Positions 10,304-27,594 of a DNA stretch of 36,786 nucleotides are shown here, one piece after another. Numbering within the stretch: position 1 is the stretch's first letter; every line of letters starts with the position of its first letter. Made by a program: the position numbers and the translations under genes. The notes under the pieces were generated by a model that made no database searches, was not told the DNA's origin, and saw only the letters and a program-made list of their open reading frames with translations. Origin of the DNA: an uncultured Eubacteriales bacterium (GTDB lineage Bacteria; Acidobacteriota; Aminicenantia; Aminicenantales; Aminicenantaceae); contig CAZEWV010000001.1 in NCBI GenBank assembly GCA_964516025.1, forward strand, positions 3,669 through 40,454. Reading direction: 5' to 3'.

Positions 10304-10822
10304 TTATCTTACCGAGTCGAGCATCTCTTGTAGAGGTTTGAAGGCTTCAGCTAGTCCTGTGACATCGTACGTAGCTGTAAGCATATTCTTTTTGTCGGGC
10401 CTTATTTGTGCAATAAACCGATCGACTTTCATCAACTTATCGACAAAATCAAGAGTCTGTCTCTGACTGCCCCTACGCCATGTCTCATCGTGTGTTGAAT
10501 TTAGAGACCATTTAGATTCAAGTTTTGGTCTTCCGTCTCCGAATCTACAAGTGACGACAGGTCCAAAGTTTGAGGTAGGAGAGATATACCTGTTCCAGAT
10601 TAAAATCACTTGGAGTTTCTGTTTCTTAGCTTCGATTTTAATCGCCATAGACTGATCGGGACCATTTTCCGAAGCCAACATAATATAAACAGACTTTACA
10701 TCTGTCATATAATCTGTTGATTCGTGAAACTCCCATTTCCCTGTGTTTTGTGCCTGACACTTCATCGCTAACCCAAAAGTCAGCGCTATGATCATTAAAC
10801 CTAAACCAATTAACTTTTTCAT
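10304..10822 (-). CDS. Hypothetical secreted protein
   Basis: 172-aa ORF with signal peptide MKKLIGLGLMIIALTFGLAMKCQA. I recognise no motif. Confidence 0.55.
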   Translation of the reverse strand: MKKLIGLGLMIIALTFGLAMKCQAQNTGKWEFHESTDYMTDVKSVYIMLASENGPDQSMAIKIEAKKQKLQVILIWNRYISPTSNFGPVVTCRFGDGRPKLESKWSLNSTHDETWRRGSQRQTLDFVDKLMKVDRFIAQIRPDKKNMLTATYDVTGLAEAFKPLQEMLDSVR

Positions 10823-11012
10823 AATATTTGTATCTTATTCTTTTCTTCTCTTTTTCTTTTCCTCATCTGTCGCCGGAGTTCTTTTGAGAAGGACTCTCTG
10901 CCTTGTTTTCATTCTTTCCTTCTCTTGGTTTATTCGCATTTCCTCTCCTGCTAGTTCTGCCCGATTCTACTTTCTCTGATCTAAAAAAGCAAATGGGATC
11001 CCCCCAATTTCC

Positions 11013-13996: not shown

Positions 13997-16498
13997 ATGA
14001 AAAGTAAAGCTGAACACAGGATTCTTGCGTCAAGAATCTCCCATGATTTTTTACATCTGTCAGATCAGGTTTTCATTTTAACCAATAAGGACATTGCGAG
14101 GATTGATTTTCTCCGCGACTTGTTGATTCTACTCTCAAATTTTTCTAGCTGTTCGTTTGTAGGACTAAGAATTTTAGAAGGGAATAACTATTTACAAAGT
14201 GAGATTTCAGGGATTAAAAAACCTGAATTTCGGTTTCGGGTTAAATCTTGCATGCGGGGAGAAAGAAGTCAGTATATCCCATGTTCGGCGAAAGACACAC
14301 CAATTGAAACGGCATGTGCAAATGTATTTACTTCAAGGTTTCATCCCGGCCTTTGCTGTTTCACTGCAAAGGGGAGTTTTTGGACAGGTGAAAAGGGAAA
14401 TCTTTTGGCATTCCCTCCGAAAAAAGGAGACAAGAGGCACCTGCCGCCTACGAAAAATGGTAATTCATATGAATCTTACATGTTGGTCCCAATTAATACA
14501 GGAGAAGACCGGATAGGGCTCCTGATGATGATGAGTGAAAAGAAAAATTTCTTTTCAGAAAAAGATGTCACCCATTATGAAGATTTTGTGAAGATTCTGG
14601 GAATTGCAATTTCCAGCCAGCTTTCGCAAGCGGCTCTTCGAGAGAGAGTCAAAGAACTGAGATGTCTCTACAGCCTCTCAGAACTGGCCGCATGGCCAGA
14701 TACATCTTTAGACAGCATATTCCGGAGAACAATAATGGCTGTCCCTCCTGGCTGGCAGTATCCTGAAATCACTTGTGCCCGTCTTGTTTTTGAGGGAAAA
14801 GAATTTCTTACTGATAATTTTAAAAAAACACGCTGGAGACAAAAAGCCCCCATAATCGTAGATGGAAAAAAGAAGGGTTCCCTGGAAGTTTTTTACATGA
14901 AAAAGAAAATGGATATCGATGAAGGACCTTTTCTGAAAGAGGAAAGAGAGCTTCTGAATGCTTTAGTTGTCTTGCTCGGATCGATAGTCGAACATAGACA
15001 GACTGAGGAGGCTAGATCCAAGTTGGCATCCATTGTTGAATTTTCGGACAATGCAATTATCAGTAAGAATCTTGACGGAATGATAATCAGTTGGAACAAA
15101 GGAGCTGAAAGACTGTTTGGATATACTGAAGATGCGGTTTTGGGTAAATCTATAACGATACTGATACACCCAGCCTACGCCGGAGAAATTGATGAGTTTT
15201 TAAAAGCAATCAAAAGCGGGAAAAGTATTGATGACAAAGAGACTCTTTTTGTAAAGAAGGACGGGGAAAGTATAGATGTCGCGCTTTCGCTCTCTCCAAT
15301 AAATGATGGAACAGGACGATTGACCGGAGCTTCAACCATTGCGCAAGACATATCGGATCGAAAAAGAGCCGAAAATGCTCTTTTGCAGAGTGAGCACGCA
15401 CTCAAGGAACGAGTTAAAGAATTAACCTGTTTATACAGTCTGGCACAACTCTCCAAGGAGCCAAAAATCTCGCTGGATGAATTGCTCATAGGAATAACCA
15501 AGCTTCTCCCCCCGGCCTGGCAGTACCCAGAGATCACATCCGGCGCTATTTTATTAGATGATAAATACTATGAATCCCAAGGTTTCAGAAAGGGCAAGCA
15601 TATCCAATCTTCAGATATCATAATAAAAGGATACAATCGGGGAAAGATTGAGGTCCACTACTCAGAGGAAATGCCTGAGCTGGATGAAGGGCCTTTTCTC
15701 AATGAGGAAAGAAATCTGATTGATACGATCGCCAAACAGATCAGCGTCATTATTGATAGAAGAGAGACAGAACAGGAAAAAAGTCAATTGAAGGAACAAC
15801 TGCGTCATGCAGACAGACTTGCCACTATCGGACAGCTTGCTGCCGGGGTAGCCCATGAGCTCAATGAGCCTTTAGGGAATATTCTAGGGTTCGCTCAACT
15901 CATGAAGAAAACAGAGGAACTCCCCGATCAGGCGTCTCAAGATGTCAAAAAAATCATCTCTGCATCTTTATTCGCAAGAGAGATCATCAAAAAGCTAATG
16001 TTATTTGCCCGCCAGACTCCCCCACGCAAAACAGAAGTCAATCTGAACAATATTGTTAAAGAAGGAATCGGCTTTCTCAAAAGCCGTGCTTTAAAGGAAG
16101 GGATTAAGATCATTTGGAAACTTTCCCCTCAACTCCCTGAGATAACAGCCGATCCTTCTCAGCTCATCCAGGTTTTTGTCAACCTCGTCGTGAATGCCTT
16201 TCAGGCGATGCCTAAAGGCGGATCATTAACCATCCGGACATTAAGAAAAGCAAATCAAGTCCACCTCCAGATCGTGGATACGGGAGAAGGAATAGACGAT
16301 GATGTGAAAGAAAAGATATTTCTTCCATTTTTTACGACAAAAGACATCGGGAAGGGAACGGGTTTAGGATTGTCTGTTGCCCACGGGATAATCAACTCTC
16401 ATGGAGGGTCTATTATCGTAAAAAGCGAGAGGGGAAAGGGTACGTGTTTCGATATACAATTGCCCCTTAAAGGGCCGAATTCTTCAAAGGAGGGCTAA
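13997..16498 (+). CDS. Cytoplasmic multi-sensor histidine kinase (GAF-like, unknown sensor module, PAS, second unknown sensor module, HisKA, HATPase_c)
   Basis: 833-aa ORF with no hydrophobic segments. The H-box is ..AAGVAHELNEPLGNI.. and the ATPase N/G boxes are ..NLVVNAFQAM.., ..DTGEGI.., ..GTGLGLSV... PAS is ..FSDNAIISKNLDGMIISWNKGAERLFGY... Two paralogous modules of about 125 aa begin at RVKELRCLYSLSEL and RVKELTCLYSLAQL. The start codon is uncertain (no SD). Confidence 0.85.
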   Translation: MKSKAEHRILASRISHDFLHLSDQVFILTNKDIARIDFLRDLLILLSNFSSCSFVGLRILEGNNYLQSEISGIKKPEFRFRVKSCMRGERSQYIPCSAKDTPIETACANVFTSRFHPGLCCFTAKGSFWTGEKGNLLAFPPKKGDKRHLPPTKNGNSYESYMLVPINTGEDRIGLLMMMSEKKNFFSEKDVTHYEDFVKILGIAISSQLSQAALRERVKELRCLYSLSELAAWPDTSLDSIFRRTIMAVPPGWQYPEITCARLVFEGKEFLTDNFKKTRWRQKAPIIVDGKKKGSLEVFYMKKKMDIDEGPFLKEERELLNALVVLLGSIVEHRQTEEARSKLASIVEFSDNAIISKNLDGMIISWNKGAERLFGYTEDAVLGKSITILIHPAYAGEIDEFLKAIKSGKSIDDKETLFVKKDGESIDVALSLSPINDGTGRLTGASTIAQDISDRKRAENALLQSEHALKERVKELTCLYSLAQLSKEPKISLDELLIGITKLLPPAWQYPEITSGAILLDDKYYESQGFRKGKHIQSSDIIIKGYNRGKIEVHYSEEMPELDEGPFLNEERNLIDTIAKQISVIIDRRETEQEKSQLKEQLRHADRLATIGQLAAGVAHELNEPLGNILGFAQLMKKTEELPDQASQDVKKIISASLFAREIIKKLMLFARQTPPRKTEVNLNNIVKEGIGFLKSRALKEGIKIIWKLSPQLPEITADPSQLIQVFVNLVVNAFQAMPKGGSLTIRTLRKANQVHLQIVDTGEGIDDDVKEKIFLPFFTTKDIGKGTGLGLSVAHGIINSHGGSIIVKSERGKGTCFDIQLPLKGPNSSKEG

Positions 16499-17854
16499 GT
16501 GGCCGCTACGCGCAAAAAAGACTGCCTGCTCATTGTGGAAGATTCTTCTGAAACACGGGAAGTCCTTGAGAGGAATTTGATTTCCCAAGGATACAAAGTG
16601 CTTACGGCTCCTGGTGTTGAGGAAGCTGTTCGGATTCTCGAAGGAGAGGAGGTGGATCTTGTGGTCACCGACCTGAAAATGCCAGGCAGTAGTGGATTAG
16701 ATTTAGTCCGGCATGTCCGGGAAAATTTCAAGGACACCGAGGTCATGATGATCACTGGATATGCATCGATTGAAGGCGCAGTCAAGGCAGTGAAAACAGG
16801 TGCTGAAGAATATCTTTCGAAGCCGTTTACGGAAGATGAGCTGTTTGCGGCGGTGAAGAGAATTCTAGAAAAACTCCACCAGCGCAGGATTTCCCAAGCT
16901 TATGATTTTCGTAGGCCGCATACACCACATGGGCTTATAGGGGAATCAGCGGCGATGAATAAAGTGTTTCATGCCATATCTAAAACGGCCTCCACATCCG
17001 CCACAGTCCTGATTACGGGAGAGAGTGGGACAGGGAAAGAATTAGTAGCCAGAGCTACCCACTATGGGAGCCCGAGGTCTGCGGCTCCATTCGTCCCTGT
17101 TAACTGTGGTGGGATTCCCGAAGGGCTTCTGGAGAGCGAGCTTTTTGGCCATATCAAAGGAGCATTTACTGGGGCGACAGGGTCCCGTGCCGGATTTTTT
17201 CAAACCGCGGATGGCGGATCTATTTTCCTTGATGAAATTAGCGAAACAAGTCTTGCTATGCAGGTCAAGCTTCTTCGGGTTCTTCAGGACAAAGAAGTGT
17301 GCATGCTGGGGGCGACACGGACTCGTAAGGTCGATGTCCGAGTTATTGCTGCAACTAACAAGGATCTTGCCAAGTTGGTAAAAAAGGAAGGTTTCAGAGA
17401 AGATCTTTATTTCAGGTTGAACGTTATCACGATCGAAGTCCCTCCTCTTCGTGAGAGAGGAGATGATATTCTCCTCCTAATAAATCATTTTTCTCAGAAG
17501 TTTGCCAAAGAGATAGGCAAAACACCCCTTAGGTTTTCTGAAAGAGCACTCAGCGCACTTAAAAAATACAATTGGCCCGGAAACGTCAGAGAACTTGAAA
17601 ATGTTGTCAATCGTCTTGTTATAATGTGTGAGGTAGAGATTATCAATGCCTCGGATCTTCCATCTCTAATGCGATATTCCGCTCCACGAGGGGCCAGATT
17701 AAACCAGAGTCTGGAGGAAGTCGAAATCGAACATATACGTAATGTCCTTGCCAGCCTCGATGGAAACAAGACTCGCGCCGCCAAGATTCTCGGAATAGAC
17801 CGGAAAACCCTGAGGGAGAAACTGAAAAGCTATAGGATAAATCAGGAATATTAG
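16499..17854 (+). CDS. Sigma54-dependent response regulator (NtrC family: REC, AAA+ with GAFTGA, Fis-type HTH)
   Basis: 451-aa ORF. GTG start lies immediately after the kinase stop (TAAGTG) with AAGGAGGG upstream. It has receiver ..DLVVTDLKMPG.., Walker A GESGTGKE, the sigma54-contact loop GAFTGA, ..ELFGH.. and C-terminal ..GNKTRAAKILGIDRKTLREKLK.. HTH. Confidence 0.9.
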   Translation: MAATRKKDCLLIVEDSSETREVLERNLISQGYKVLTAPGVEEAVRILEGEEVDLVVTDLKMPGSSGLDLVRHVRENFKDTEVMMITGYASIEGAVKAVKTGAEEYLSKPFTEDELFAAVKRILEKLHQRRISQAYDFRRPHTPHGLIGESAAMNKVFHAISKTASTSATVLITGESGTGKELVARATHYGSPRSAAPFVPVNCGGIPEGLLESELFGHIKGAFTGATGSRAGFFQTADGGSIFLDEISETSLAMQVKLLRVLQDKEVCMLGATRTRKVDVRVIAATNKDLAKLVKKEGFREDLYFRLNVITIEVPPLRERGDDILLLINHFSQKFAKEIGKTPLRFSERALSALKKYNWPGNVRELENVVNRLVIMCEVEIINASDLPSLMRYSAPRGARLNQSLEEVEIEHIRNVLASLDGNKTRAAKILGIDRKTLREKLKSYRINQEY

Positions 17855-17961: not shown

Positions 17962-17994
17962 AACCGATTGATATAAAATCAGTTATTCAGTTAT
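17962..17994. promoter_or_regulatory. Candidate upstream activator sequence for the NtrC-type regulator
   Basis: Imperfect 23-bp palindrome AACCGATTGATATAAAATCAGTT (17962-17984) overlaps a tandem TCAGTTAT TCAGTTAT (17979-17994). It lies about 65-100 bp upstream of the -24/-12 element, the usual bEBP distance. This rests on position and symmetry only. Confidence 0.3.
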
Positions 17995-18058
17995 ATCATT
18001 CAGCGCTAAACTCACGCCGGTCTTTCAAACGAAGCCCAATTCCTCAGTTTCAATTTTA

Positions 18059-18074
18059 TGGCACAGATATTGCA
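18059..18074 (+). promoter_or_regulatory. Sigma54 (-24/-12) promoter
   Basis: TGGCACagataTTGCA is an exact match to TGGCAC-N5-TTGCW with canonical GG/GC spacing. It lies about 40 nt upstream of the first operon ATG and directly downstream of a sigma54 activator gene. Confidence 0.8.
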
Positions 18075-18112
18075 CATGAAAAAGGGTGAATACATTATTA
18101 GAGGAGGTATTA

Positions 18113-18475
18113 ATGCAGAACTCAGAGATTCAGGCCCCAGGCAAAGAGAATGAAAAAGAAAACGTTATTGAAAAAGAGGTTGGTACCGGCCCACATCCGG
18201 TTACAGAGAAATTTAATGACCTCTGTGTGAGCTGCAACCACTTGTCTCTCTGTCAATCCAAGAAAAACACAGTACGTCCTGTGTATTTCTGTGAAGAGTT
18301 TGATGATTACATCCCCCCCTTATCCAAAATTGTTCAACAGGAAAAGAAAACGACGGCCTACAAAGACAGGATCGACAACCCGAATCTGGGTTTGTGTATG
18401 AATTGTGCGCACCGTGATGACTGTGGATACTCCAAATCTGAAGGAGGTATATGGCACTGCGAGGAATACGCTTGA
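18113..18475 (+). CDS. Small cysteine-rich protein with tandem CxxCx5Cx11-12CEE[FY] modules (function unknown)
   Basis: The ORF track starts at GTG 18086. I prefer ATG 18113 (GAGGAGG 5 nt upstream, downstream of the predicted sigma54 start site). The 120-aa protein has module 1 LCVSCNHLSLCQSKKNTVRPVYFCEEF and module 2 LCMNCAHRDDCGYSKSEGGIWHCEEY. Confidence 0.75.
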   Translation: MQNSEIQAPGKENEKENVIEKEVGTGPHPVTEKFNDLCVSCNHLSLCQSKKNTVRPVYFCEEFDDYIPPLSKIVQQEKKTTAYKDRIDNPNLGLCMNCAHRDDCGYSKSEGGIWHCEEYA

Positions 18476-18525
18476 CTCAATGTGCAAGGCTAGTTTTGAG
18501 TTGTAAATATAAGAGAGAGGAGTAA

Positions 18526-19374
18526 ATGGAAGTGGAAACTGTTTATAAGATAATTGAGAAACAGGAAGGGGATGAGGGAGGACTCATTTCTATTCTGGAG
18601 GAGATCCAGAATCAATATAGCTATCTCAGCGAGGATGCATTGAGAATCGTCGCGGAAAAAACGGGTTCTTCTCTCGTCGATATCTACGGAATTGCCACGT
18701 TTTACAGATCTTTCAGTTTAAAGCCAAGAGGGAAACATCTGGTATCCGTGTGCCTCGGAACTGCCTGTCATGTCCGAGGAGGTCCGAATGTAGCTAAAGC
18801 GTTCGAACGTATCCTTGGAATAAAAGCAGGAGGAATGACCAAGGATAAGGAGTTTACTCTGGAGACTGTTGCATGCCTTGGGGCATGTGCCTTAGGCCCA
18901 ATTGTCGTCGTCGACGGGCACTATTTCTCCAAGGTCAGAATCTCTGATGTTGATAAAATCTTGAAAAGAGCCAAAAAAGGACTAGATCAGGAGAGAACCG
19001 ATGCCGATTCTCACCTTTTTCCGCTCGAAGTCAGTTGCCCACACTGCAATCATAGTTTAATGGATCACGGCTATTATATAGATGGGCATGCATCGATCCG
19101 TGTAACCGTGTCCTTTGGTCAAAAACATGGCTGGCTTCGAATGTCATCCCTTTTCGGGAGTTACGCGGTTGATTCGGAATATGAAATTCCAATGAAAACA
19201 GTTGTGAATTTCTTCTGTCCTCACTGCCATGCGGAATTAAATTCGGCGTCCAATTGTGTCAAGTGTGAGGCATCCATGGTACCGATGATAGTCCGAAGCG
19301 GAGGTATGCTTCAAATTTGCTCCCGCCGTGGTTGCAGGAACCATATGCTCGATCTCAACGGAGTCAACTTCTAA
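18526..19374 (+). CDS. NuoE/HydC-like thioredoxin-fold [2Fe-2S] subunit with C-terminal four-CxxC zinc-ribbon-like extension
   Basis: 282 aa. The N-terminal 150 aa or so carry the NuoE cluster motifs ..SVCLGTACHVRGG.. and ..VACLGACALGPIVVVDG... The C-terminal 120 aa or so carry CPHCNH, CPHCHAEL, CVKCEA and CSRRGC. GGAG SD lies upstream. Confidence 0.85.
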   Translation: MEVETVYKIIEKQEGDEGGLISILEEIQNQYSYLSEDALRIVAEKTGSSLVDIYGIATFYRSFSLKPRGKHLVSVCLGTACHVRGGPNVAKAFERILGIKAGGMTKDKEFTLETVACLGACALGPIVVVDGHYFSKVRISDVDKILKRAKKGLDQERTDADSHLFPLEVSCPHCNHSLMDHGYYIDGHASIRVTVSFGQKHGWLRMSSLFGSYAVDSEYEIPMKTVVNFFCPHCHAELNSASNCVKCEASMVPMIVRSGGMLQICSRRGCRNHMLDLNGVNF

Positions 19375-19427
19375 ATTTAATTCTCCAGACAACGAAAAAT
19401 TTTATGAAATAAGATGAGGGTAAGTAT

Positions 19428-21278
19428 ATGGAAAAAATCGACACAATAGAAGATTTCAAGACTTTTAAAAGCCTTCTGACCGCGGATCGAGAGCCTGATA
19501 TGCCCACTCTAGTTATCCCTGCCGGGACTTGCGGCCAAGCAAGCGGAGCAAACGAACTTATTCGCATAGCAAAGAGGGAAATCTTGATGAAAGGGTTGGT
19601 AGACAAACTTAACCTCCGTATAACTGGATGTCATGGATTCTGTGAAATGGAGCCCTCAGTACTCGTTGTTCCCCACCGTACATTCTATCCGAAAATCACT
19701 CCTGCAAACATGGTGAAAATCGTCAGTGCAGTAAGTACCGGAAATGTTTTAGAAGATCTGTTATACAGAGACAAAGAATCGACAACAGTGGTGGAAAAGC
19801 AAGAAGATATTCCATTTTTTAAAAATCAGAAACGTGTTCTGCTTGCGAGGAATGAGCAGGTCGATCCGATCCGGATTTTCAACTACATAGAGAGCGGAGG
19901 ATATTCTTCCCTGGCCAAAGTCCTAGAGAAAAAAAGCTCAAAGTGGGTGGTTGATGAAGTGAAAAAATCCGACCTTCGAGGAAGAGGAGGGGCCGGCTTT
20001 TCGACAGGATTGAAGTGGGCGCTCCTTGCAAACCAGACCAATGGCTCAGGAAGTTATTTGGTCTGTAATGCTGATGAGGGGGATCCCGGCGCATATATGG
20101 ATCGGTGTTTGCTTGAAGGGAATCCACACTCCATTATCGAAGGAATGCTTATCGGTGCCTTCGGTACCGGAGCAACAGAAGGAGTGATGTATGTCCGGAA
20201 CGAGTATCCGTTAGCAATCAAACATTTCATTATAGCTCTCCGCCAGGCAAAAGAAATAGGCTTGTTGGGAGAGAATATTCTTGGTACAAGCTTTTCCTTT
20301 AATCTGAGATTGGTCAGGGGAGCGGGTGCATTTGTATGTGGAGAGGAAACCGCTCTCATGCGCTCTATTGAGGGAAACATAGGAGAACCTCGGCAGAGGC
20401 CTCCCTATCCCGTCCAGAGGGGAATCCGGAACAAGCCGACTGCTATCAATAATGTTGAAACTTGGGCTAATATTCCGGTGATCTTCGAAACTGGTGCAAA
20501 AGAATATGCTAAAACAGGAACAAAGAACAATTCTGGAACCAAGATCTTCAGTCTGGTTGGGAAAATCAAGAACACAGGTCTTGTTGAGGTTCCTATGGGG
20601 ATCTCTCTTAAAAGGATTATTGAGGATATCGGTGAAGGAGCTTCGGGCAAAGTAAAAATTAAAGCTGTCCAGACAGGGGGTCCGTCCGGCGGTTGTATTC
20701 CCGCAGATAAATTCAATGTGGCTATAGATTATGATTCTTTGTCCAAAGCCCGATCTATCATGGGATCCGGCGGCATGATCGCAATGGACGAACACACCTG
20801 TATGGTGGATGTCGCAAAATACTTCATGGAATTTCTTAAGGATGAATCCTGTGGAAAATGCTTCAGTTGCAGGAAAGGAACACAACGGATGTATGAGATT
20901 CTTGAGGACATCTCTAGCGGGAAAGGAACATTAGAAGAACTCGATTTACTCGAAGAACTTGCTCTTGTCGTTAAAGACACTACGATGTGCGGTTTGGGTC
21001 AGACAGCACCTAATCCAGTGCTGTCGACTCTTCTCTATTTCAGAGAGGAATTCCTGGAACACATCAAATACATGCGCTGTCCTGCCGGTGTCTGTAAGGA
21101 GCTAATCACGTTTTCCATTAACGAGTTATGTACAGGATGTGGGATCTGTAAGCGCGCCTGTCCTGAAAATGCAATAAGTGGTGAGAAAAAAATGCTGCAC
21201 ATGATCGACGCTGAAAAATGCATCAAATGTGACGCTTGTCGTTCTATCTGTAAATTTGATGCCGTTCAGATTGATTAG
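19428..21278 (+). CDS. NuoF/HydB-like FMN- and NAD(H)-binding subunit with N-terminal 2Fe-2S domain and C-terminal 2x[4Fe-4S] ferredoxin domain
   Basis: 616 aa. Motifs: GRGGAGFSTGLKW (FMN), CNADEGDPGA (NADH), ESCGKCFSCRKGT...MCGLGQTAPNP (N3-type 4Fe-4S). The N-terminal block is ..PAGTCGQASG..ITGCHGFCEMEP... The C-terminal blocks are CTGCGICKRACP and CIKCDACRSICK. Confidence 0.9.
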   Translation: MEKIDTIEDFKTFKSLLTADREPDMPTLVIPAGTCGQASGANELIRIAKREILMKGLVDKLNLRITGCHGFCEMEPSVLVVPHRTFYPKITPANMVKIVSAVSTGNVLEDLLYRDKESTTVVEKQEDIPFFKNQKRVLLARNEQVDPIRIFNYIESGGYSSLAKVLEKKSSKWVVDEVKKSDLRGRGGAGFSTGLKWALLANQTNGSGSYLVCNADEGDPGAYMDRCLLEGNPHSIIEGMLIGAFGTGATEGVMYVRNEYPLAIKHFIIALRQAKEIGLLGENILGTSFSFNLRLVRGAGAFVCGEETALMRSIEGNIGEPRQRPPYPVQRGIRNKPTAINNVETWANIPVIFETGAKEYAKTGTKNNSGTKIFSLVGKIKNTGLVEVPMGISLKRIIEDIGEGASGKVKIKAVQTGGPSGGCIPADKFNVAIDYDSLSKARSIMGSGGMIAMDEHTCMVDVAKYFMEFLKDESCGKCFSCRKGTQRMYEILEDISSGKGTLEELDLLEELALVVKDTTMCGLGQTAPNPVLSTLLYFREEFLEHIKYMRCPAGVCKELITFSINELCTGCGICKRACPENAISGEKKMLHMIDAEKCIKCDACRSICKFDAVQID

Positions 21279-21306
21279 AAGATGATGAAACAAGAGGAGA
21301 AATGGA

Positions 21307-22002
21307 ATGGTTACTTTAAACATTAACGGATTAGATGTGACCGTCGAAAAGAGCATGACTCTATTGGAAGCCGCTCAATTCCTAGGTTTTCCAATTCCAA
21401 CATTATGTCATATGGAAGGCCTTTCCCCATACGGAGCATGCAGGCTCTGTGTGGTAGAAATCGGAGAGGGGAAGAAATCAAAGTTAGTTTCTTCTTGCAC
21501 TTACCCGGTGGAAGAAGGGATTAAAGTCAGGACTACCTCAGAAAGGGTAGCTCGAGCTCGGAAAATGATAATCGAGCTCCTGCTGGCTTCCTGTCCTCAA
21601 TCCAAGCTAATTCAAGACCTAGCTTCTGCTCACAATGTCCAGAAACAGCGTTTCAAACAGGAATTCGAAGATTGCATACTCTGTGGACTCTGTGTCCGGA
21701 TGTGTGAAGAGCAGATGATGGCAAAAGCCATCGGTTTTCGCGGGAGAGGGGAAAACCGCACCATAGGGACTCCCTTTGACATCCGGTCCGAAGAATGCAG
21801 GACTTGTGGTGGATGTCAGTATGTCTGTCCAGCCTGTCAGCTCCGCTGCACGTTCACAGAGCCTGACAAGGCGATATGCGGAGCGTGTGGAAATCTAAGC
21901 CCAACTTGTCTGGAAAAAGATGATTTCAACGATATGATGTGCTACATGGAGCCCTGTGTAGCCTGTGAGATTAAAAATAAAGATGAAAAAAGGAGTATTT
22001 AA
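21307..22002 (+). CDS. Fe-S subunit resembling only the N-terminal part of NuoG/HydA ([2Fe-2S] plus two Cys4 cluster motifs)
   Basis: 231 aa. MVTLNINGLDVTV...LCHMEGLSPYGACRLCVVEI is a plant-type 2Fe-2S N-terminus as in NuoG. This is followed by CILCGLCVRMC and CRTCGGCQYVCP. No catalytic domain is attached. Confidence 0.8.
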   Translation: MVTLNINGLDVTVEKSMTLLEAAQFLGFPIPTLCHMEGLSPYGACRLCVVEIGEGKKSKLVSSCTYPVEEGIKVRTTSERVARARKMIIELLLASCPQSKLIQDLASAHNVQKQRFKQEFEDCILCGLCVRMCEEQMMAKAIGFRGRGENRTIGTPFDIRSEECRTCGGCQYVCPACQLRCTFTEPDKAICGACGNLSPTCLEKDDFNDMMCYMEPCVACEIKNKDEKRSI

Positions 22003-22004
22003 CC

Positions 22005-23621
22005 ATGACACTTTCCAAAATAAACGCAACAGCAGCAACATTAACAAAAAATCGGACTGAAGGATCCGTCGTTCCAGCATCAGGGATGTGCGTAACTTGT
22101 GTTGATGGATGTATTGGAATGTGCGAAATTGGGAAGTCCGCCTACCGCGGTCATGAAGTGATCTATCCACAACCTTTCGGAGTTATAACAACGGCTTCAG
22201 AAAAGAATTACCCTGTCGATTATTCCCATTTAAACATCATGGGCACAGCAACAGGGACCTTTGGAATTGAGGAAGATAGCGACAAAGCAATTTTTCCTGC
22301 CGTAAAACTCGAAGTTGCCTTTGGGCATGATAAAAAACTTCGTTTCAAGTACCCATGGATCATTCCTGGAATCGGTTCTACCGATATTGCAAAAAACAAT
22401 TGGGAGGGATTGGCGATCGGATCCGCATTGGCCGGGACGGGACTGACAATCGGAGAAAATGTTGTCGGGATGGATTCCGAAGCCGTCATAAAGAACGGAC
22501 GCGTGACGGACACGAAGGATCTCAAACGACGTGTTGATCTCTTTAAAAACCATCAGAGGAATGGATATGGAGCGATAATTGTCCAGGCCAATATCGAAGA
22601 TACACGGCTCAAAGTGCAGGAATACGCCATTGAAAAACTAGGGGTTACATGTGTGGAATTGAAGTGGGGACAGGGCGCTAAAAACATCGGAGGAGAGGTC
22701 AAAATCAGAGATATCAAACGGGCCCAAATGCTGCACAAGAGAGGATACGTTGTTCTCCCAAATCCAACTGATCCGCTTGTGATAAAAGCCTATGAGAGAG
22801 GAGCATTCAAGGAGTTTGAAAGACATTCGAGAGTGGGGATGGTGAATGAAGAATCTTTTGCAAAGAGAGTCGAAGAACTTCGTGCTGCAGGAGCAAAGCA
22901 CATCTTCTTAAAGACAGGGGCCTATAGGCCTCTGGACCTTGCCCGGGCAGTCTATTATTCCTCAAAATATCATATCGATCTTTTAACTGTCGATGGAGCG
23001 GGAGGTGGAACCGGCATGAGTCCTTGGAGAATGATGAATGAATGGGGAATCCCTCCGGTTGAACTTCACACTCTATTGTACAGATATGCCAAACAGCTTG
23101 CAGAAAGAGGAGCATACATTCCCGCATTAGCCGTCGCTGGGGGGTTCACATTCGAAGATCAGATCTTCAAGGGCCTTGCCTTGGGTGCCCCTTTCGTGAA
23201 GTTGGTCGGGATGGCAAGAGGCCCGATTGCCGCCGCCATGGTAGGAAAAACCATAGGAAGAACGATTAATGAAAATCAAGTTCCAATCTATGTCGAACGG
23301 TTTGGGAGGACAAGAGATGAGATTTTTGTCACGTCCAGTGATTTACGCAAAGAACTGGGAGATAAGGAATTCGATAAGACACCAACGGGTGCACTGGGAT
23401 TGTATACTTATTATGAGAGACTTGGGCAAGGCCTACGACAGCTGATGGCCGGCTGCCGCAAATTTGCCTTAAAACACATTTCAAGAGACGATCTGGCCGC
23501 GCTGACAAAAGATGTTTCTGATATCAGTGGTATTCCCCATGTAATGGATGTTGACAAGAAAGCTGTCGAGAACTTAATGAACGAGGACTTGATCCAATCA
23601 GAAGTCACAATGGTCCAGTGA
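22005..23621 (+). CDS. Glutamate-synthase FMN-domain-family (GltB domain 2-like) oxidoreductase with N-terminal CxxCxxxCxxxC motif
   Basis: 538 aa. It starts 2 nt after the preceding stop, with AAGGAG upstream. TIM-barrel FMN blocks are ..LTVDGAGGGTGMSPW.. and ..ALAVAGGFTFEDQIFKGLALGAPFV... The N-terminal block is ..GMCVTCVDGCIGMCEIGKS... No amidotransferase or GXGXG domain is present. Confidence 0.8.
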   Translation: MTLSKINATAATLTKNRTEGSVVPASGMCVTCVDGCIGMCEIGKSAYRGHEVIYPQPFGVITTASEKNYPVDYSHLNIMGTATGTFGIEEDSDKAIFPAVKLEVAFGHDKKLRFKYPWIIPGIGSTDIAKNNWEGLAIGSALAGTGLTIGENVVGMDSEAVIKNGRVTDTKDLKRRVDLFKNHQRNGYGAIIVQANIEDTRLKVQEYAIEKLGVTCVELKWGQGAKNIGGEVKIRDIKRAQMLHKRGYVVLPNPTDPLVIKAYERGAFKEFERHSRVGMVNEESFAKRVEELRAAGAKHIFLKTGAYRPLDLARAVYYSSKYHIDLLTVDGAGGGTGMSPWRMMNEWGIPPVELHTLLYRYAKQLAERGAYIPALAVAGGFTFEDQIFKGLALGAPFVKLVGMARGPIAAAMVGKTIGRTINENQVPIYVERFGRTRDEIFVTSSDLRKELGDKEFDKTPTGALGLYTYYERLGQGLRQLMAGCRKFALKHISRDDLAALTKDVSDISGIPHVMDVDKKAVENLMNEDLIQSEVTMVQ

Positions 23622-23795: not shown

Positions 23796-23853
23796 GCCGA
23801 GGGCCGGACTCGAACCGGCACGTAGGATCACCTACGAGGGATTTTTAAATCCC
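23796..23853 (-). pseudogene. 3' fragment of a tRNA-Leu(TAA)-like gene with one extra base in the anticodon loop
   Basis: Reverse complement is GGGATTTAAAAATCCCTCGTAGGTGATCCTACGTGCCGGTTCGAGTCCGGCCCTCGGCA. It has a long variable arm, a perfect T-arm GCCGG/TTCGAGT/CCGGC and the acceptor 3' strand. The anticodon loop is TTTAAAAA (8 nt). Upstream sequence has no D-arm or GCCGAGG acceptor 5' strand. Confidence 0.6.
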
Positions 23854-23897: not shown

Positions 23898-24803
23898 TTA
23901 ATCATAAAGATTATCGCCTGGGCTGAATTTACTGTGCTGCGATTGGATGTCCTTGAATGTGATATTCACATAATTCCTGACCATATCAAGAGTTTTGTGT
24001 CCAAGGATTTTCTGAAGGCTAAATATATCCCCGCCGTTCATCAGCCAATTCTTTGCAAATGTATGGCGGAAGGTATGAGCTGAGAGCCTTACGTTTTCTA
24101 TTTTAGCTTTAATCCCGATTCTTTCAATTGTTTTGTTCGTCATTCTAATTGTTAAAGGATCTCCGAATTTAGTAAGAAAAAGCACGCCTTCTTTCCCAAA
24201 CAACTTGTTTCTTCTATTCAAATATTTTACTAAACCAATGAGCGACCGATCTCCAAAAGGCACTACTCTCCCCTTTCCACCCTTTCCTCTAACTGTCAGG
24301 ATCTTCTCATCAAGCTGAATATTCTCAATCTTGAGTCCCAATAATTCTGAGATCCTGCAACCCGTATCATAAAGCAGAGTGATTAATGTATGGTTTCTGA
24401 TTCCTGGGAAATCCATCTGATGTTTTGTGACTTCAAGCATTGACATGATCTGGCTAGTGGAAAAAGTAGGAATAACAGCTTGGTCAGTCTTTACCCTTGA
24501 AATTTTCCTCGAAGGATTTTCTATGATCACATCCTCTTCTAACATAAACTTGAAGAGAATCTTCAGCACTTTAATGTGATGGTTAACTCCTCCAGGTGAG
24601 TAATTTTCCTTTATCCCTGAAACGTACTCCCTCAAAATAGTATGGTCGATCTGCTCGAGAGAGACATCAGGATATTGTGACTCCATAAACTCAAGGAATT
24701 TGCTGAGATGCTGGCTGTAGAAAGTGATTGTATTGGGGCTTAGATTCCTTAGCCTCCTGGTTGAGATAAAGGCAGACACCATCCCTCTTAAAGTTGTGGT
24801 CAT
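23898..24803 (-). CDS. Tyrosine site-specific recombinase (XerC/XerD-like phage integrase family)
   Basis: 301 aa. It has an N-terminal SAM-like core-binding domain (..TITFYSQHLSKFLEFM..). Catalytic residues sit in the usual blocks: ..DTGCRISELLGL.. (R), ..AHTFRHTFA.. (H-x-x-R), ..ILGHKTL.. (H), ..VRNYVNI.. (Y). AAGGAGG SD lies upstream. It sits immediately downstream of a tRNA-fMet-derived repeat. Confidence 0.9.
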   Translation of the reverse strand: MTTTLRGMVSAFISTRRLRNLSPNTITFYSQHLSKFLEFMESQYPDVSLEQIDHTILREYVSGIKENYSPGGVNHHIKVLKILFKFMLEEDVIIENPSRKISRVKTDQAVIPTFSTSQIMSMLEVTKHQMDFPGIRNHTLITLLYDTGCRISELLGLKIENIQLDEKILTVRGKGGKGRVVPFGDRSLIGLVKYLNRRNKLFGKEGVLFLTKFGDPLTIRMTNKTIERIGIKAKIENVRLSAHTFRHTFAKNWLMNGGDIFSLQKILGHKTLDMVRNYVNITFKDIQSQHSKFSPGDNLYD

Positions 24804-24987: not shown

Positions 24988-25044
24988 TTAGCACCGTTAG
25001 TCAGAATTAGGCATTATTAGGCACAATTTGGCCCGTATTTGGCC
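24988..25044 (+). repeat. Phased site array: TTAGCA, TTAGTC, TTAGGC, TTAGGC, TTGGCC, TTGGCC at 9-11 bp spacing
   Basis: Sites start at 24988, 24997, 25007, 25017, 25028 and 25039. The reverse complement of 36185-36243 shows the same order of sites. Confidence 0.65.
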
Positions 25045-25068
25045 CACAGGGATAGGTATATATATTGT

Positions 25069-25097
25069 TTGACACTCATTCCTCAAATATTTAAGCT
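25069..25097 (+). promoter_or_regulatory. Sigma70-type promoter candidate for the Ser/Thr kinase gene
   Basis: TTGACA (25069-25074), 17-nt spacer, TAAGCT (25092-25097). The extended -35 context GTTTGACACTC is shared with the candidate promoter at 32736. Confidence 0.4.
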
Positions 25098-25122
25098 ATT
25101 ACCATCCAGTATGGAGGAAAAG

Positions 25123-27594
25123 ATGAGCACTGTCTGCCCCAAGTGTCAAACCGCTAATCCCGAAGATTCTAAGTTATGTATGGAATGTTCAAGCTCACTT
25201 GAGCCCACACACGAAATCTCGGCTACAAAAACTCTCGAGACACCAGGCAAAGGAATAACCACAGGAACTACCTTTGCCTCCAGGTATGAAGTCATCAAGG
25301 AGCTCGGGAAGGGAGGTATGGGCAAAGTATATATGGCCTTGGATAATGAGATTGATGAAGAAGTTGCTTTAAAACTTCTTAAACCCGAGATTGCCTCTGA
25401 TGATAGCACAGTTGAACGCTTCCGGAATGAGCTGAAATTTGCCCGAAAGATCTCTCATAAAAATGTCTGTCGTATGTACCACCTTAGTAAAGAAGGAGAG
25501 ATTCCCTATATCACTATGGAGTATGTAGAAGGTGAGGATCTAAAGAGCTTGGTCAAAAAGAGAGGGAAACTGTCAGATGCGGAATCAATATCCATAGTCA
25601 AGCAACTGTGCGAAGGCTTGGCTGAAGCACATAGGCTGGGAGTTGTGCACCGGGATTTAAAGCCTCAAAACATCATGATCGATAAGGAAGGCACTGCAAA
25701 GATCATGGATTTTGGGATTTCCCGATTTGTCGAAGCACCTGGAGTGACGACAACAGGAATGATTATCGGGACTCCCGATTATTTATCACCCGAACAAGCA
25801 GAAGGAGAGGAGACAGATCAACGTGCTGATATCTATTCCTTAGGTGTGATTCTTTATGAATTGACCACAGGCAGGGTTCCATTTAAGGGGGATACGGCAT
25901 TGAGTGTGGCGCTAAAACATAAGTCCAAGGTACCTTCAAATCCAAAGGAACTCAATCCAAATATTTCGGAAAATCTCAACCGATTGATTTTGATCTGCAT
26001 GGCGAAAGAGAGAGAGGAGAGGTATCAGACAGCAGAAGAACTGTTGTTGGATTTAAACAATATTGAAGCAGGTATTCCCTTAGGAAAAAGGATCCTTCCC
26101 AAAAAAAAGAAACTTTTTAAAAAAAGACGTGTAATCAGGTGGAAGCAAATTTTCCTTTTTGGAGGAGTTCCACTTCTGCTGGTTTTGTTTATTGCAGGAG
26201 CATTTTATTTGTACACAACTCGAGCTGCAACCATCCATTCCATAGCGGTCCTCCCCTTTGAGAATCTTACAGGAGATTCCGAGCAGGAGTATTTTGTTGA
26301 TGGAATAACGGATGAATTGATAGGAAATCTTGGACGGATTAAAGCGTTCCGACGAGTGATATCTTTCTGGACTGTAGCACAGTATAAAAACGCGAAAAAA
26401 CCATTGCCTGAGATTGCCCAGGAGCTTAATGTGGATGCCGTAGTGACAGGTTCAGTTCAGAAGACTGGTGGGAGCTTGAGCATTCGGGTTCAATTGATAA
26501 AAGTGAATCCAGATGAACAAAATCTATGGGAGGAGACATATGATCGGATCCTGACCGATGTACTAGTAATGAGCGGAGAGATAGCCCAGACTATTGCCAG
26601 GGAGATCCGGATAAATCTTACAACCGAAGAAAAAACTCTCTTTGCAGATACCCGTCAGATAAATCCAGAAACTTACCAGGCATACCTAAAGGGTATGTCC
26701 TACTTGACAGATATTACAATCGACTCGGAAACGGCAGATAAGGCCATTGCCTGTTTTAATGAAGCTGTTGAAAATGATCCCACAGATCCCTTGGCCTATG
26801 CGGGACTGGCATATGGCTACACTACTATCGGACACAGCTATAATCCGACTCCGGATGCCTGGCCCAGAGCCAGGGCAGCAGCCGACAGAGCATTGAGGCT
26901 AGATCCCATGCTAGCAGAAGGCTATGCAGCCTTAGCAGATGTCAAGCTTTACTACGAATGGGACTGGGAGGGTGCAGAGCAGGCCTTTCTGAGGGCCAAT
27001 GAGCTGAATCCCAATCTGGCCTTGAATCACTTCCACTATGCCTGGTTGCTCGCTGAGATAGGACGCATGGATGAAGCCATTGTCGAACACAAACGTGCCC
27101 AGGAACTAGATCCACTAACTCCTCTGCATACGGCATGGTTAGGAGGGCTGTACTGGATCGATGGAAAATATGATAAGGCAATTATAGAAATACAGAAAGT
27201 ATTTGAATTCGAACCTGATAACCATTTAGCAACATGGCTCCTGGCGTTAGTTTACGCAGACATAGGAAGGTATGAGGAGGCTGTTGAAACTCACGAAAAA
27301 TATATGGCCCCTTGGTGGTCACTAGCACGCCTCTACGCAGAAGTCGGAAGGGAGGATGAGGCAAGAGAGATTGCGGCCAAATTGGAGGAGCAACCTGATC
27401 CTCTGCGTACATTCGGACTGGCTGCAATGTACACAGCCCTTGGGGATAAGGACAAAGCATTCCAGTGGCTGGCTTATAAACCGCACCACGCCTGGATGCC
27501 AGCATTCAGGATTTTCTTCTGGTTCACCCCTCTACACGACGATCCCCGTTTCCATGATCTCCTGCAAAAGATGAACCTGCCTCCTTTGGAATGA
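25123..27594 (+). CDS. Membrane Ser/Thr protein kinase with N-terminal zinc ribbon and extracytoplasmic TolB-N-like plus TPR domains
   Basis: The ORF track starts at TTG 25039. I prefer ATG 25123 (GGAGG 5 nt upstream); ATG 25111 is also possible. It has CPKCQTANPEDSKLCMEC. Hanks kinase motifs are GKGGMGKVY, VALK, HRDLKPQNIM, DFGIS and GTPDYLSPE. One TM helix is followed by ..IAVLPFENLTGDSEQEYFVDGITDELI.. and then TPR-like repeats. Confidence 0.85.
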   Translation: MSTVCPKCQTANPEDSKLCMECSSSLEPTHEISATKTLETPGKGITTGTTFASRYEVIKELGKGGMGKVYMALDNEIDEEVALKLLKPEIASDDSTVERFRNELKFARKISHKNVCRMYHLSKEGEIPYITMEYVEGEDLKSLVKKRGKLSDAESISIVKQLCEGLAEAHRLGVVHRDLKPQNIMIDKEGTAKIMDFGISRFVEAPGVTTTGMIIGTPDYLSPEQAEGEETDQRADIYSLGVILYELTTGRVPFKGDTALSVALKHKSKVPSNPKELNPNISENLNRLILICMAKEREERYQTAEELLLDLNNIEAGIPLGKRILPKKKKLFKKRRVIRWKQIFLFGGVPLLLVLFIAGAFYLYTTRAATIHSIAVLPFENLTGDSEQEYFVDGITDELIGNLGRIKAFRRVISFWTVAQYKNAKKPLPEIAQELNVDAVVTGSVQKTGGSLSIRVQLIKVNPDEQNLWEETYDRILTDVLVMSGEIAQTIAREIRINLTTEEKTLFADTRQINPETYQAYLKGMSYLTDITIDSETADKAIACFNEAVENDPTDPLAYAGLAYGYTTIGHSYNPTPDAWPRARAAADRALRLDPMLAEGYAALADVKLYYEWDWEGAEQAFLRANELNPNLALNHFHYAWLLAEIGRMDEAIVEHKRAQELDPLTPLHTAWLGGLYWIDGKYDKAIIEIQKVFEFEPDNHLATWLLALVYADIGRYEEAVETHEKYMAPWWSLARLYAEVGREDEAREIAAKLEEQPDPLRTFGLAAMYTALGDKDKAFQWLAYKPHHAWMPAFRIFFWFTPLHDDPRFHDLLQKMNLPPLE

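Follow-up and report, generated by a model that had tools for sequence, protein, structure and literature searches.

A sigma54-associated operon predicted to couple a Bfu-type electron core to a glutamate synthase-like FMN subunit in an uncultured bacterium

The window analysed here is a 36,786-nt stretch of the genome of an uncultured bacterium (contig CAZEWV010000001.1; coordinates of open reading frames (ORFs) are window positions), and it contains a string of genes on the forward strand that encode a histidine kinase, a sigma54-dependent response regulator and, past a 258-nt intergenic region, five closely packed proteins denoted g1 to g5 (Table 1). The gaps between consecutive genes from g1 to g5 are 50, 53, 28 and 2 nt, and an AGGAG-like Shine-Dalgarno sequence precedes every start; the ORF coordinates reproduce exactly the layout described in the original prediction, which had been made from the sequence alone. 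No transmembrane helices are predicted in g1-g5, such that all five subunits are predicted to be soluble, and a domain search across the window ORFs of at least 100 aa detected neither a glutamine amidotransferase nor a GXGXG domain. On balance, we favor the interpretation that this operon encodes a soluble, multi-cluster Fe-S flavoprotein complex of the Bfu (BfuABC/HydABC) family in which g5 would be a new catalytic module, switched by sigma54 and probably acting on a substrate in the glutamate pool. For comparison, we fetched 82 related loci (L-numbers below, each with its own coordinates).

Table 1 Features of the operon and its surroundings in the window
Feature	Position	Strand	Details
Sensor histidine kinase	13997-16498	+	833 aa; Pfam: GAF-like, PAS, HisKA, HATPase_c; no clear transmembrane helix
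Sigma54-dependent response regulator (bacterial enhancer-binding protein, bEBP)	16499-17854	+	Pfam: REC, AAA+ sigma54-interaction, HTH_8
Candidate upstream activator site	17966-18001		Inverted repeat GATTGATATAA-N14-TTATATCATTC; repeat search
Sigma54 -24/-12 element	18059-18074	+	TGGCACagataTTGCA; exact match; 39 nt before the g1 ATG
g1	18113-18475	+	ATG start; the longest ORF opens at GTG 18086
g2	18526-19374	+	
g3	19428-21278	+	616 aa
g4	21307-22002	+	231 aa
g5	22005-23621	+	538 aa
Candidate intrinsic terminator	23821-23846	+	Hairpin CGTAGG-ATCA-CCTACG followed by a T-run; 200 nt past the g5 stop; consensus scan only
Tyrosine recombinase	23898-24803	-	277 nt downstream of g5

The second and third genes encode what appears to be a bifurcation-type electron module. 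The g2 protein matches PF01257 (E 2e-45, residues 8-149), its best matches in the PDB are HydC (8a6t_C), NiFe-BfuC (7t2r_C) and WorC (9mqx_C), and 98-100% of 47 orthologues retain the ligands of the C1 [2Fe-2S] cluster characteristic of BfuC (C76, C81, C117 and C121), in agreement with the predicted NuoE/HydC-type 2Fe-2S protein. Beyond this domain, g2 carries a 130-aa C-terminal extension (residues 150-282) with eight Cys that are invariant among the 47 orthologues and are arranged in four C-x2/4-C knuckles (CPHC...CPHC-x9-CVKC...C-x4-C). This extension is absent from the solved HydC/BfuC structures and may form Zn ribbons or rubredoxin-like iron sites. The g3 protein consists of PF01512 (E 1e-41), PF10589 (E 2e-32) and two C-terminal Fer4 domains, and a phmmer search of the PDB retrieved NiFe-BfuB (7t2r_B, E 5e-208) along with HydB (7q4v_B), NfnB (9n5u_B) and WorB (9mqx_B), all of them BfuB subunits from electron-bifurcating enzymes of solved structure, with NuoF of complex I far behind (~1e-97). 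Pfam and NCBIfam agree here with the proposed NuoF/HydB-type subunit that has a 2x[4Fe-4S] domain at its C-terminus and a 2Fe-2S-like stretch at its N-terminus.

The cluster ligands and active-site signatures of g3 can be compared with those that set bifurcating BfuB proteins apart. Its residues C475-x2-C478-x2-C481...C521 align with the Cys ligands of B1 in 7t2r_B. Schut et al. (2022, PMC9304861) list as Bfu-specific traits of BfuB the B2 ligands C438, H525, C531 and C536 (Acetomicrobium mobile numbering), which are missing in the non-bifurcating homologues, and a variable residue at position 476; g3 has the equivalents C458, H545, C551 and C556, and its variable position is taken by Ser496, with Ser found there in 55 of the 1558 BfuB sequences surveyed (PMC9304861). 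According to the same work, bifurcating BfuB proteins carry GDPGA[FY]MDR (with A202 and M204) and GAGAFVCGE (with F282), as opposed to G(E/D)PG(S/T)xKDR and GAGAY in the non-bifurcating ones, and the B3/B4 ferredoxin domain is treated as invariant in Bfu enzymes (PMC9304861). Both signatures of the NADH/FMN site are present in g3, namely NADEGDPGAYMDR (GDPGAYMDR) and RGAGAFVCGEETALM (GAGAFVCGE), and two CxxCxxCxxxC motifs at residues 561-615 represent the B3/B4 domain. On these features, g2 and g3 are predicted to make up a complete BfuC/BfuB core and not merely a "NuoEF-like" pair.

The g4 protein is the Fe-S N-terminus of NuoG/HydA and nothing more, as had been proposed: it matches PF13510 and Fer4_7, has two CxxCxxCxxxC motifs and would hold clusters A1, A2 and A4 only. 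Neither the H-x3-C-x2-C-x5-C motif of the His-ligated cluster nor a catalytic domain was found in it. It scores against the HoxU NCBIfam model, below the HoxE/HoxU equivalog cut-offs, and its best match in the PDB is WorA (9mqx_A, E 1e-38, residues 4-186). The tail of g4 (C177-C220) adds eight further invariant Cys, and all 20 Cys of the protein are 95-100% conserved in 57 orthologues that are 70-83% identical. In Type-2 Bfu enzymes, BfuA contains A1, A2 and A4 only and is accompanied by one or more separate catalytic subunits (PMC9304861); by its domain content, g4 would be such a Type-2 BfuA Fe-S wire, and on the features that were tested, g2-g4 of the window classify together as members of the Bfu family.

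The presumed catalytic subunit, g5, matches PF01645 (Glu_synthase) with 52.7 bits against a cut-off of 20.4, over profile positions 185-303 of 369 only, and has no match among the NCBIfam models. A phmmer search of the PDB with g5 returned no match, and a profile of the g5 family compared with the PDB placed de novo TIM barrels first and glutamate synthase (GltS) at E=0.14; hhalign of g5 with the FMN domain of Escherichia coli GltB covered residues 321-411 only (probability 67%). The AlphaFold2 (AF2) model of g5 is a confidently predicted (beta/alpha)8 TIM barrel (mean pLDDT 83.6), for which Foldseek ranks the FMN domain of Synechocystis GltS first (1ofd_A, E 2.5e-9, 16% identity), almost equaled in score by type-2 isopentenyl diphosphate isomerase (IDI-2) and by glycolate/lactate oxidases. 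Thus, the assignment of g5 as a GltS-type FMN protein stands as regards the PF01645 match, and the kinship with GltS itself is only remote.

Several motifs nevertheless connect g5 with GltB at the residue level. The segment V-E218-L-K220-W-G-Q223-G-A-K226, which is almost invariant in the family, aligns with IQIKVAQGAK of E. coli GltB and contains the pattern E-x-K-x2-QGAK. The motifs shared by the two proteins are ELKWGQGAK/QIKVAQGAK, ERHS/PHHD and DGAGGGTGMSP/GYDGGTGASP (g5 first), such that g5 combines the PF01645 match with the FMN-phosphate motif. The 3Fe-4S motif of GltS, C-x5-C-x4-C, is absent: GltB reads GCKYLRICHLNNC, as against no Cys in the aligned part of g5 (residues ~405-425). 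The Cys of g5 are C216, C483 and an N-terminal set with the spacing C29-x2-C32-x3-C36-x3-C40, which varies little or not at all within the family. In a Smith-Waterman alignment, the Arg of the GltB IAxxR motif falls, in a low-confidence stretch, on Leu243 of g5, which is at least 90% conserved. In GltS, this Arg binds the distal carboxylate of 2-oxoglutarate and, because it aligns with a conserved Leu here, the substrate of g5 need not be 2-oxoglutarate itself. Hence the picture of a PF01645 superfamily member that, judged from its sequence, fails three defining traits of glutamate synthase proper; that g5 is not a conventional GltS had been stated already in the original prediction and is borne out by the lack of the amidotransferase and GXGXG domains and of the 3Fe-4S motif. 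The chemistry of g5 is probably GltS-like, with the flavin mediating the reduction of a 2-oxo or 2-imino acid. We also considered a 2-hydroxy-acid oxidoreductase as the principal interpretation of g5 and rejected it: the conserved residues are the QGAK and GGTGxSP motifs of GltS and not the His/Arg/Tyr set of the alpha-hydroxy-acid oxidases.

Among the 82 related loci, gene order was judged wherever the locus was long enough, and in every such locus the NuoE-like gene, the NuoF-like gene, g4 and g5 follow one another in this order; most of the related loci also have a g1 homologue and the genes for the kinase and the activator upstream. The five-gene arrangement with its regulators therefore recurs across phyla, and the searches with Pfam and NCBIfam profiles support the domain calls originally made for g2-g5, with g1 left outside any family. 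The most conserved genes of the cassette are g4 (70-83% identity) and g5 (73-96%). Clustering of the neighboring ORFs revealed as the only further recurrent companions a GdhA-type glutamate dehydrogenase (GDH; 12 of 74 loci), a ~1000-aa protein with a PPDK_N domain (9 loci) and a nitroreductase-family gene (3 loci), and no amidotransferase or GXGXG gene was among the recurrent neighbors in the 82 loci. The large proteins (600-1080 aa) in which PPDK_N (ATP-grasp of pyruvate phosphate dikinase/PEP synthase) is otherwise the sole domain recognized lie next to GDH and the cassette, mostly in metagenome-assembled genomes (MAGs) of the FCB group (L058 10482-13241, L075 2112-5090, L095 10951-15899, and L020, L033, L041, L062, L066, L074 and L084), and one of them also carries NTP_transf_2. 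The nitroreductase-family gene (347-357 aa) is located between the activator and g1 in three loci of Planctomycetota (L001 2755-3798, L023 3571-4614 and L031 4591-5664).

The cassette is widespread. Homologues of g5 fall into more than 8000 clusters at 90% identity, and the best 120 of these are 79-83% identical to the g5 of the window and are annotated as "FMN-binding glutamate synthase family protein" or "glutamate synthase domain-containing protein 2", all named sources being MAGs. When one genome per species was scanned, the cassette was found in at least 597 species-level genomes from more than 15 phyla. The best 80 of these matches are all MAGs and come from Zixibacteria, Planctomycetota, Acidobacteriota, Bacteroidota/Ignavibacteria/Chlorobi, Verrucomicrobiota, Eisenbacteria, Latescibacterota, Krumholzibacteriia, Riflebacteria, Coatesbacteria, Marinimicrobia, Spirochaetales, Myxococcota, Thermodesulfobacteriota/Deltaproteobacteria and Syntrophorhabdus. 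Across 71 full-length g5 sequences, pairwise identity ranges from 73 to 96% (median 81%), with partial clustering by taxon: the Planctomycetota proteins are ~90% identical to one another, and Thermodesulfobacteriota and Deltaproteobacteria share 93%. This pattern fits very slow evolution combined with some lateral transfer.

Outside this set of close relatives, the family thins out rapidly. An exhaustive search of 1.84 billion cluster representatives with g5 gave only 1044 matches at E<=1e-3, with few full-length relatives, at 30-53% identity, such that the g5 family appears compact and isolated from canonical GltB. In the two diverged paralogue contexts, P0122 and P0124, the gene stands alone or on a short contig. 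Among 72,556 plasmid records, g5 had two distant near-full-length matches (39-42% identity) and four weak, partial ones; the two near-full-length homologues, from Peptoclostridium acidaminophilum and Acetoanaerobium noterae, lie on large secondary replicons and have no NuoEF genes with them. On replicon EAL2_808p of P. acidaminophilum DSM 3953 (L091 8533-10521), a 39%-identical relative of g5, likewise without NuoEF, directly follows a gene for a 133-aa "FMN-binding protein", and this cultured amino-acid fermenter could be a tractable model for the wider g5 family.

The window represents the minority form of the cassette. In ~49 of 66 full-length orthologues, the NuoF-like subunit is ~1060 aa long, and a Fer4_20 plus Pyr_redox_2 module, which resembles GltD/NfnB, replaces the 2x[4Fe-4S] domain (for example, L008 6123-9299, L019 4982-8164 and L093 10208-13450); the window has no GltD-like domain. 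In the fused module, the Rossmann motifs for FAD and for NAD(P)H are intact, the His and Cys of the B2 site are retained in the fused form (for example, RHIEDKRCDAYVC in L008), and g4 is kept at ~78% identity in both variants. From these motifs, the fusion would provide a terminus for NADP(H) that either replaces the ferredoxin terminus or supplements it.

A connection to glutamate metabolism is suggested by the GDH genes. GDH is encoded within 10 kb of the cassette in the 12 loci mentioned above, which belong to at least six phyla, and its position varies: downstream of g5 (L012, L018, L043 and L056), upstream of the NuoE gene (L018, L051 and L075, at 121-1461 in the last) or between g1 and the NuoE gene (L065, 3666-4991). 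In L057, the identical sigma54 element TGGCACACTCATTGC occurs at 2821 and at 4761 and precedes both GDH and g1. In L095, g1 is followed immediately by GDH (9627-10913) and heads a GDH-PPDK_N operon, next to which lie divergently transcribed NuoE and NuoF-GltD genes, and L084 likewise has a cassette-associated GdhA-type GDH. Because GDH appears at different positions in different phyla, these gene neighborhoods argue for independent recruitment in several phyla and for a functional link of the cassette to the glutamate/2-oxoglutarate/ammonium node.

The sigma54 element predicted upstream of g1 is present as an exact match and has a conserved counterpart upstream of g1 in related loci. The motif alone is not significant in 36.8 kb of sequence, given that 41 of 100 shuffles yield at least one TGGCACagataTTGCA-type match with at most one mismatch, and the significance of the promoter instead derives from its context and conservation. 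When one mismatch at most is allowed, 19 of 42 loci have TGGCA[CT]-N5-TTGC in the 300 nt before g1, compared with none of 42 size-matched coding controls. The operon thus combines a GG-N10-GC -24/-12 element at a fitting distance from g1, an adjacent bEBP gene and conservation in orthologous loci. The inverted repeat ~60-95 nt upstream of the -24 element is placed as expected for a bEBP enhancer and is a candidate for this role. Downstream, terminator-like sites in the region are no more numerous than in shuffled sequences, which makes the hairpin past g5 a weak candidate.

The dedicated sensor kinase and bEBP of the original prediction were recovered with Pfam, and both recur upstream of the cassette in related loci. 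In 36 related loci, the kinase encoded ahead of the cassette shares 50-62% identity with the C-terminal ~45% of the window kinase; these kinases are cytoplasmic GAF-(PAS)-HisKA-HATPase proteins, and the activator is 59-71% identical to its orthologue in 35 loci. Among the NCBIfam equivalogs, the window kinase has no match, AtoS scoring best, below the cut-off; the activator is below the cut-offs for AtoC, NtrC and ZraR, with AtoC and NtrC scoring best, and is classified as an NtrC-family member without an equivalog match. An NtrBC identity is therefore not supported for these regulators, which score below the NtrB, NtrC and AtoSC equivalog cut-offs.

The first gene of the operon, g1, encodes a 120-aa protein with two C-x2-C-x5-C-x11-12-C-E-E-[FY] repeats and eight invariant Cys that matches no Pfam or NCBIfam family. 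We found 490 homologues, every one annotated as "hypothetical". The gene is the conserved first one after the promoter in related loci and is often missed by gene finders; its AF2 model is unusable (pLDDT 51, pTM 0.16). A second g1-like ORF with eight Cys lies 3' of g5 in some loci (L001 9590-9973, L023 ~12246-12557 and L036 11971-12774). The recruitment of GDH at varied positions, including the operon headed by g1 in L095, suggests that g1 is part of the regulon, not necessarily of the redox complex.

The sequences around the operon are unremarkable for the most part. The GC content is 0.42-0.48 across the window, without a discontinuity in GC or skew, and the flanking genes are ordinary chromosomal ones, encoding a PLP-dependent Cys/Met enzyme, an Na+/H+ exchanger, GH127, an L,D-transpeptidase, an amino-acid permease-Usp protein, a Ser/Thr kinase-TPR protein, a hydrolase, a P-type ATPase and a sulfatase. 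The permease (1233-3608, reverse strand; 791 aa) is fused to two universal-stress-protein domains. The Ser/Thr protein kinase (25039-27594, forward strand; 851 aa), next after the recombinase, has a zinc ribbon at its N-terminus, TPR repeats at its C-terminus and a TolB_N-like stretch, with no evident link to the operon. Besides the recombinase, the sole other hint of mobile DNA in the window is a 149-aa ORF (35418-35867, reverse strand) with a weak match to an IS1 transposase (E 0.0045, below the cut-off).

Combining these findings, we propose the following mechanism. The dedicated cytoplasmic GAF/PAS kinase and the NtrC-family activator would act through the sigma54 promoter before g1 and turn the operon on. 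Subunits g2-g5 would form one complex, in which electrons could travel along the path NADH <-> FMN (g3) <-> B1 <-> A1-A2-A4 (g4) <-> g4 tail site(s) <-> Cys4 (g5) <-> FMN (g5) <-> substrate, with g4 wiring the BfuBC core to the Cys4 cluster and the flavin of g5. A second branch would run over B2-B3-B4 to ferredoxin, which would dock on B3/B4, such that NADH and reduced ferredoxin would jointly drive a reduction at the g5 flavin, or the reverse reaction would bifurcate electrons. The weakest step is the substrate, for which the repeated recruitment of GDH and the retained catalytic Lys motif of GltS lead us to suggest a 2-oxo or 2-imino acid tied to the glutamate/2-oxoglutarate/ammonium pool. 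A more specific possibility, which we offer as speculation and consider unlikely in this exact form, is an electron-confurcating "glutamate synthase" that would draw on NADH together with reduced ferredoxin (NADPH being an alternative in the fused variant) to reductively aminate a 2-oxo acid at a GltS-like flavin, without a glutaminase and independently of ATP, together with the co-regulated GDH.

A number of observations weigh against this mechanism. The N-terminal 2Fe-2S-like domain of g3 (NF041613 match at residues 31-111) has just three Cys (C35, C68 and C72), a pattern also seen in Csac NfnB (9n5u_B), whereas 7t2r_B and 7q4v_B have C-x4-C. Residues 1-40 of g5 are modeled with low confidence, and the proposed wiring from g4 to g5 is argued from gene adjacency and from the analogy with WorA. 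The distant relatives of g5 (30-50% identity) are stand-alone genes without NuoEF, and GDH is adjacent to the cassette in only ~16% of loci, where an ammonia-dependent GltS would moreover be redundant. The potential of the 2-oxoglutarate/glutamate couple, about -140 mV, is far from that of the third substrate of most known Bfu enzymes (~-400 mV). Nuo-Bfu (-74 mV) and Rub-Bfu have been proposed to work with high-potential partners (PMC9304861). Schut et al. deemed B3/B4 invariant in Bfu enzymes (PMC9304861), yet it is missing from the majority variant, and the cassette family may therefore not bifurcate to ferredoxin at all.

This last point leads to the view that the complex is a linear, non-bifurcating NAD(P)H-dependent reductase, in which the NuoEF-like module would serve as the NADH input, as it does in NAD-reducing hydrogenases or NAD-dependent formate dehydrogenases, and the C-terminal 2x[4Fe-4S] or GltD-like domain of the NuoF-like subunit would connect directly to g5, much as GltD connects to GltB, without any ferredoxin. 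The GltD-like domain that most relatives have in exchange for B3/B4 contains two [4Fe-4S] clusters with which a GltB-type FMN domain would naturally pair, and NADH alone is a sufficient reductant if the couple is 2-oxo acid/amino acid. However, g3 keeps the equivalents of His525/Cys531/Cys536, A202/M204 and F282, by which Schut et al. told bifurcating BfuB from its non-bifurcating homologues (PMC9304861), and so does the fused variant; the retention of g4 in both variants would also be odd if the g3 C-terminus did the wiring; we regard this alternative as rather doubtful. The same degree of doubt applies to a bona fide glutamate synthase with a new architecture, where g5 would aminate 2-oxoglutarate with free ammonia or with the help of a glutaminase encoded elsewhere, drawing electrons from NADH, NADPH and/or ferredoxin. 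The PF01645 match with the conserved QGAK/GGTG motifs and the top rank of GltS in Foldseek would then be explained directly, as would the fusion of the GltD-like domain, the natural partner of GltB, to NuoF in about three quarters of the loci, the repeated synteny and co-regulation with GdhA-type GDH, and the choice of an NtrC-family regulator with a GAF-bearing kinase. Yet no amidotransferase or GXGXG domain was found in the window or among the recurrent neighbors in the 82 loci, the 3Fe-4S motif is missing, the IAxxR Arg aligns with a conserved Leu (in a low-confidence alignment), the family profile reaches GltS only at E=0.14, the regulators miss the NtrB/NtrC equivalog cut-offs, and an ammonia-dependent form would duplicate the adjoining GDH.

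It is much harder to reconcile the data with two unrelated enzymes that are merely co-transcribed, namely, a BfuABC-like NADH:ferredoxin module without a partner and an independent, ferredoxin-dependent GltS-like flavoenzyme. That distant relatives of g5 (39-50% identity) occur without NuoEF genes indicates that g5 can use other donors, and to this extent favors such a split. The strict order and orientation of g2-g3-g4-g5 in all informative loci from more than 15 phyla, the gap of 2 nt between g4 and g5 in the window, the lack of a catalytic domain in g4 itself and the position of g4 and g5 as the most conserved genes all oppose it, which is the same linkage argument as used by Schut et al. 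for Por-, Codh- and Mbh-Bfu (PMC9304861); we hold this possibility to be highly improbable. Hardly better founded, and in our estimate very unlikely, is the notion that the cassette is horizontally mobile accessory cargo on an integrative island, such as a reductase that detoxifies a xenobiotic or a nitro compound. The recombinase gene close to g5 in the window, an unrelated integrase and an ISL3 transposase after the cassette in L001, the nitroreductase-family gene between the activator and g1 in three loci, the self-contained cassette with its own regulators and the finding that some nearest neighbors of g5 belong to other phyla could all be taken in this sense. But the window recombinase has no homologue in the 82 related loci, GC and skew are continuous, the flanks are ordinary, plasmid records yield only the few distant or partial matches described above, and g5 identities group largely by taxon. 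We accordingly dropped the "integrase-bearing island" of the original prediction.

The preferred reading, a sigma54-switched complex of the Bfu family with g5 as its catalytic module, would matter in several respects. That anaerobes use Bfu enzymes to link a third redox couple with NADH and ferredoxin has been recognized recently, and the cassette would add a GltS-like FMN TIM barrel to their modules. Identity of at least 73% in g5 over more than 15 phyla and at least 597 species-level genomes, with more than 8000 clusters, is exceptional for an uncharacterized enzyme, and the function is invisible to current pathway annotation because the best matches (the best 80 genomes) are all from uncultured MAGs and carry the label "FMN-binding glutamate synthase family protein". 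If the more speculative electron-confurcating "glutamate synthase" were true, the cassette would represent a new catalytic class in the Bfu family and a previously unrecognized, widespread node of anaerobic nitrogen and redox metabolism, and it would provide for ATP-independent ammonium assimilation or glutamate turnover in a large fraction of uncultured anaerobic Planctomycetota, Zixibacteria, Acidobacteriota, members of the FCB group and others. Knowledge of the function would bear on how nitrogen and redox balance is modeled for anoxic sediments, groundwater and digesters. The repeated recruitment of GDH and the dedicated sigma54 switch make the question of function directly testable, and the five-gene operon is self-contained.

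The published Bfu types are Codh, FdhFeFe, F420, Fdh, FeFe, Mbh, Nfn, NiFe, Nuo, Por, Rub and Wor, plus Bam, and the catalytic modules attached to them so far are hydrogenase, a pterin enzyme, carbon monoxide dehydrogenase (CODH), pyruvate oxidoreductase (POR), a GltD-like NADPH site, an F420 site, rubrerythrin and complex I (PMC9304861). A GltS-like FMN module is absent from this catalogue, and the word "glutamate" does not occur in the text or supplement of that paper; full-text searches that combined Bfu or NuoEF with glutamate synthase, NuoF with GltD, and sigma54 with GDH turned up no description of the cassette. The possibility left open at the outset, that g5 and its partners belong to an already characterized complex, has thus not materialized, in that no published Bfu type has a GltS-like catalytic module.

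The soluble, NADH-linked input/output modules of the HoxEFU diaphorase/NAD+-reducing hydrogenase and of NAD-dependent formate dehydrogenase resemble the cassette in having NuoE-, NuoF- and HoxU-like subunits; g3 differs by its B2 ligands, B3/B4 and A202/M204/F282-type residues, which those enzymes lack. The FMN domain of GltB (1EA0, 1OFD, PF01645) has in common with g5 the FMN (beta/alpha)8 barrel, E-x-K-x2-QGAK, D-G-x-GGTG-A/M-SP and the HH/RH before beta-5, and in both systems an Fe-S cluster feeds, or in g5 would feed, the flavin and a GltD-type module is associated with the family. In contrast to GltB, g5 (~16% identity) lacks the amidotransferase, central and GXGXG domains, would obtain its electrons from a Bfu core, has the N-terminal C-x2-C-x3-C-x3-C in place of the 3Fe-4S C-x5-C-x4-C, and aligns Leu243 with the IAxxR Arg of GltB.

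Three Bfu enzymes are also among the closest known systems. The Nfn-Bfu/StnABC transhydrogenase (9N5U; PMC11829005, PMC10482914) joins the Bfu core to a GltD/NfnB-like 2x[4Fe-4S]-FAD-NAD(P)H module, a combination also seen in most of the related cassettes, although in that enzyme the GltD-like domain sits on BfuA and forms the third-substrate site, whereas the window variant has no GltD-like domain. In the "sub-type I BfuB" of the Hydrogenedentota [FeFe]-hydrogenase (PMC11406978), B3/B4 is replaced by DPD_II plus FAD/NAD(P), exactly as in the majority variant; unlike either of these enzymes, both cassette variants add a GltB-like FMN subunit, and neither has a hydrogenase H-cluster. The third is Wor-Bfu (WorABCSL), the tungsten aldehyde oxidoreductase of Acetomicrobium mobile (9MQX, PMC12318220), which has the same BfuC/BfuB domains and cluster ligands as g2 and g3. 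Its short BfuA, WorA (247 aa compared with 231 aa in g4), is without A3 or a catalytic domain and has a Cys-rich C-terminal element as g4 does, a Zn-finger/helix adaptor that recruits the catalytic subunits (PMC12318220). The catalytic partner is a tungstopterin aldehyde oxidoreductase with a polyferredoxin in Wor-Bfu and an FMN TIM barrel of the GltS superfamily here, and the WorA tail has four Cys compared with eight invariant ones in the tail of g4; the 130-aa, eight-Cys extension of g2, the g1 protein and the sigma54 two-component system belong to the cassette described here.

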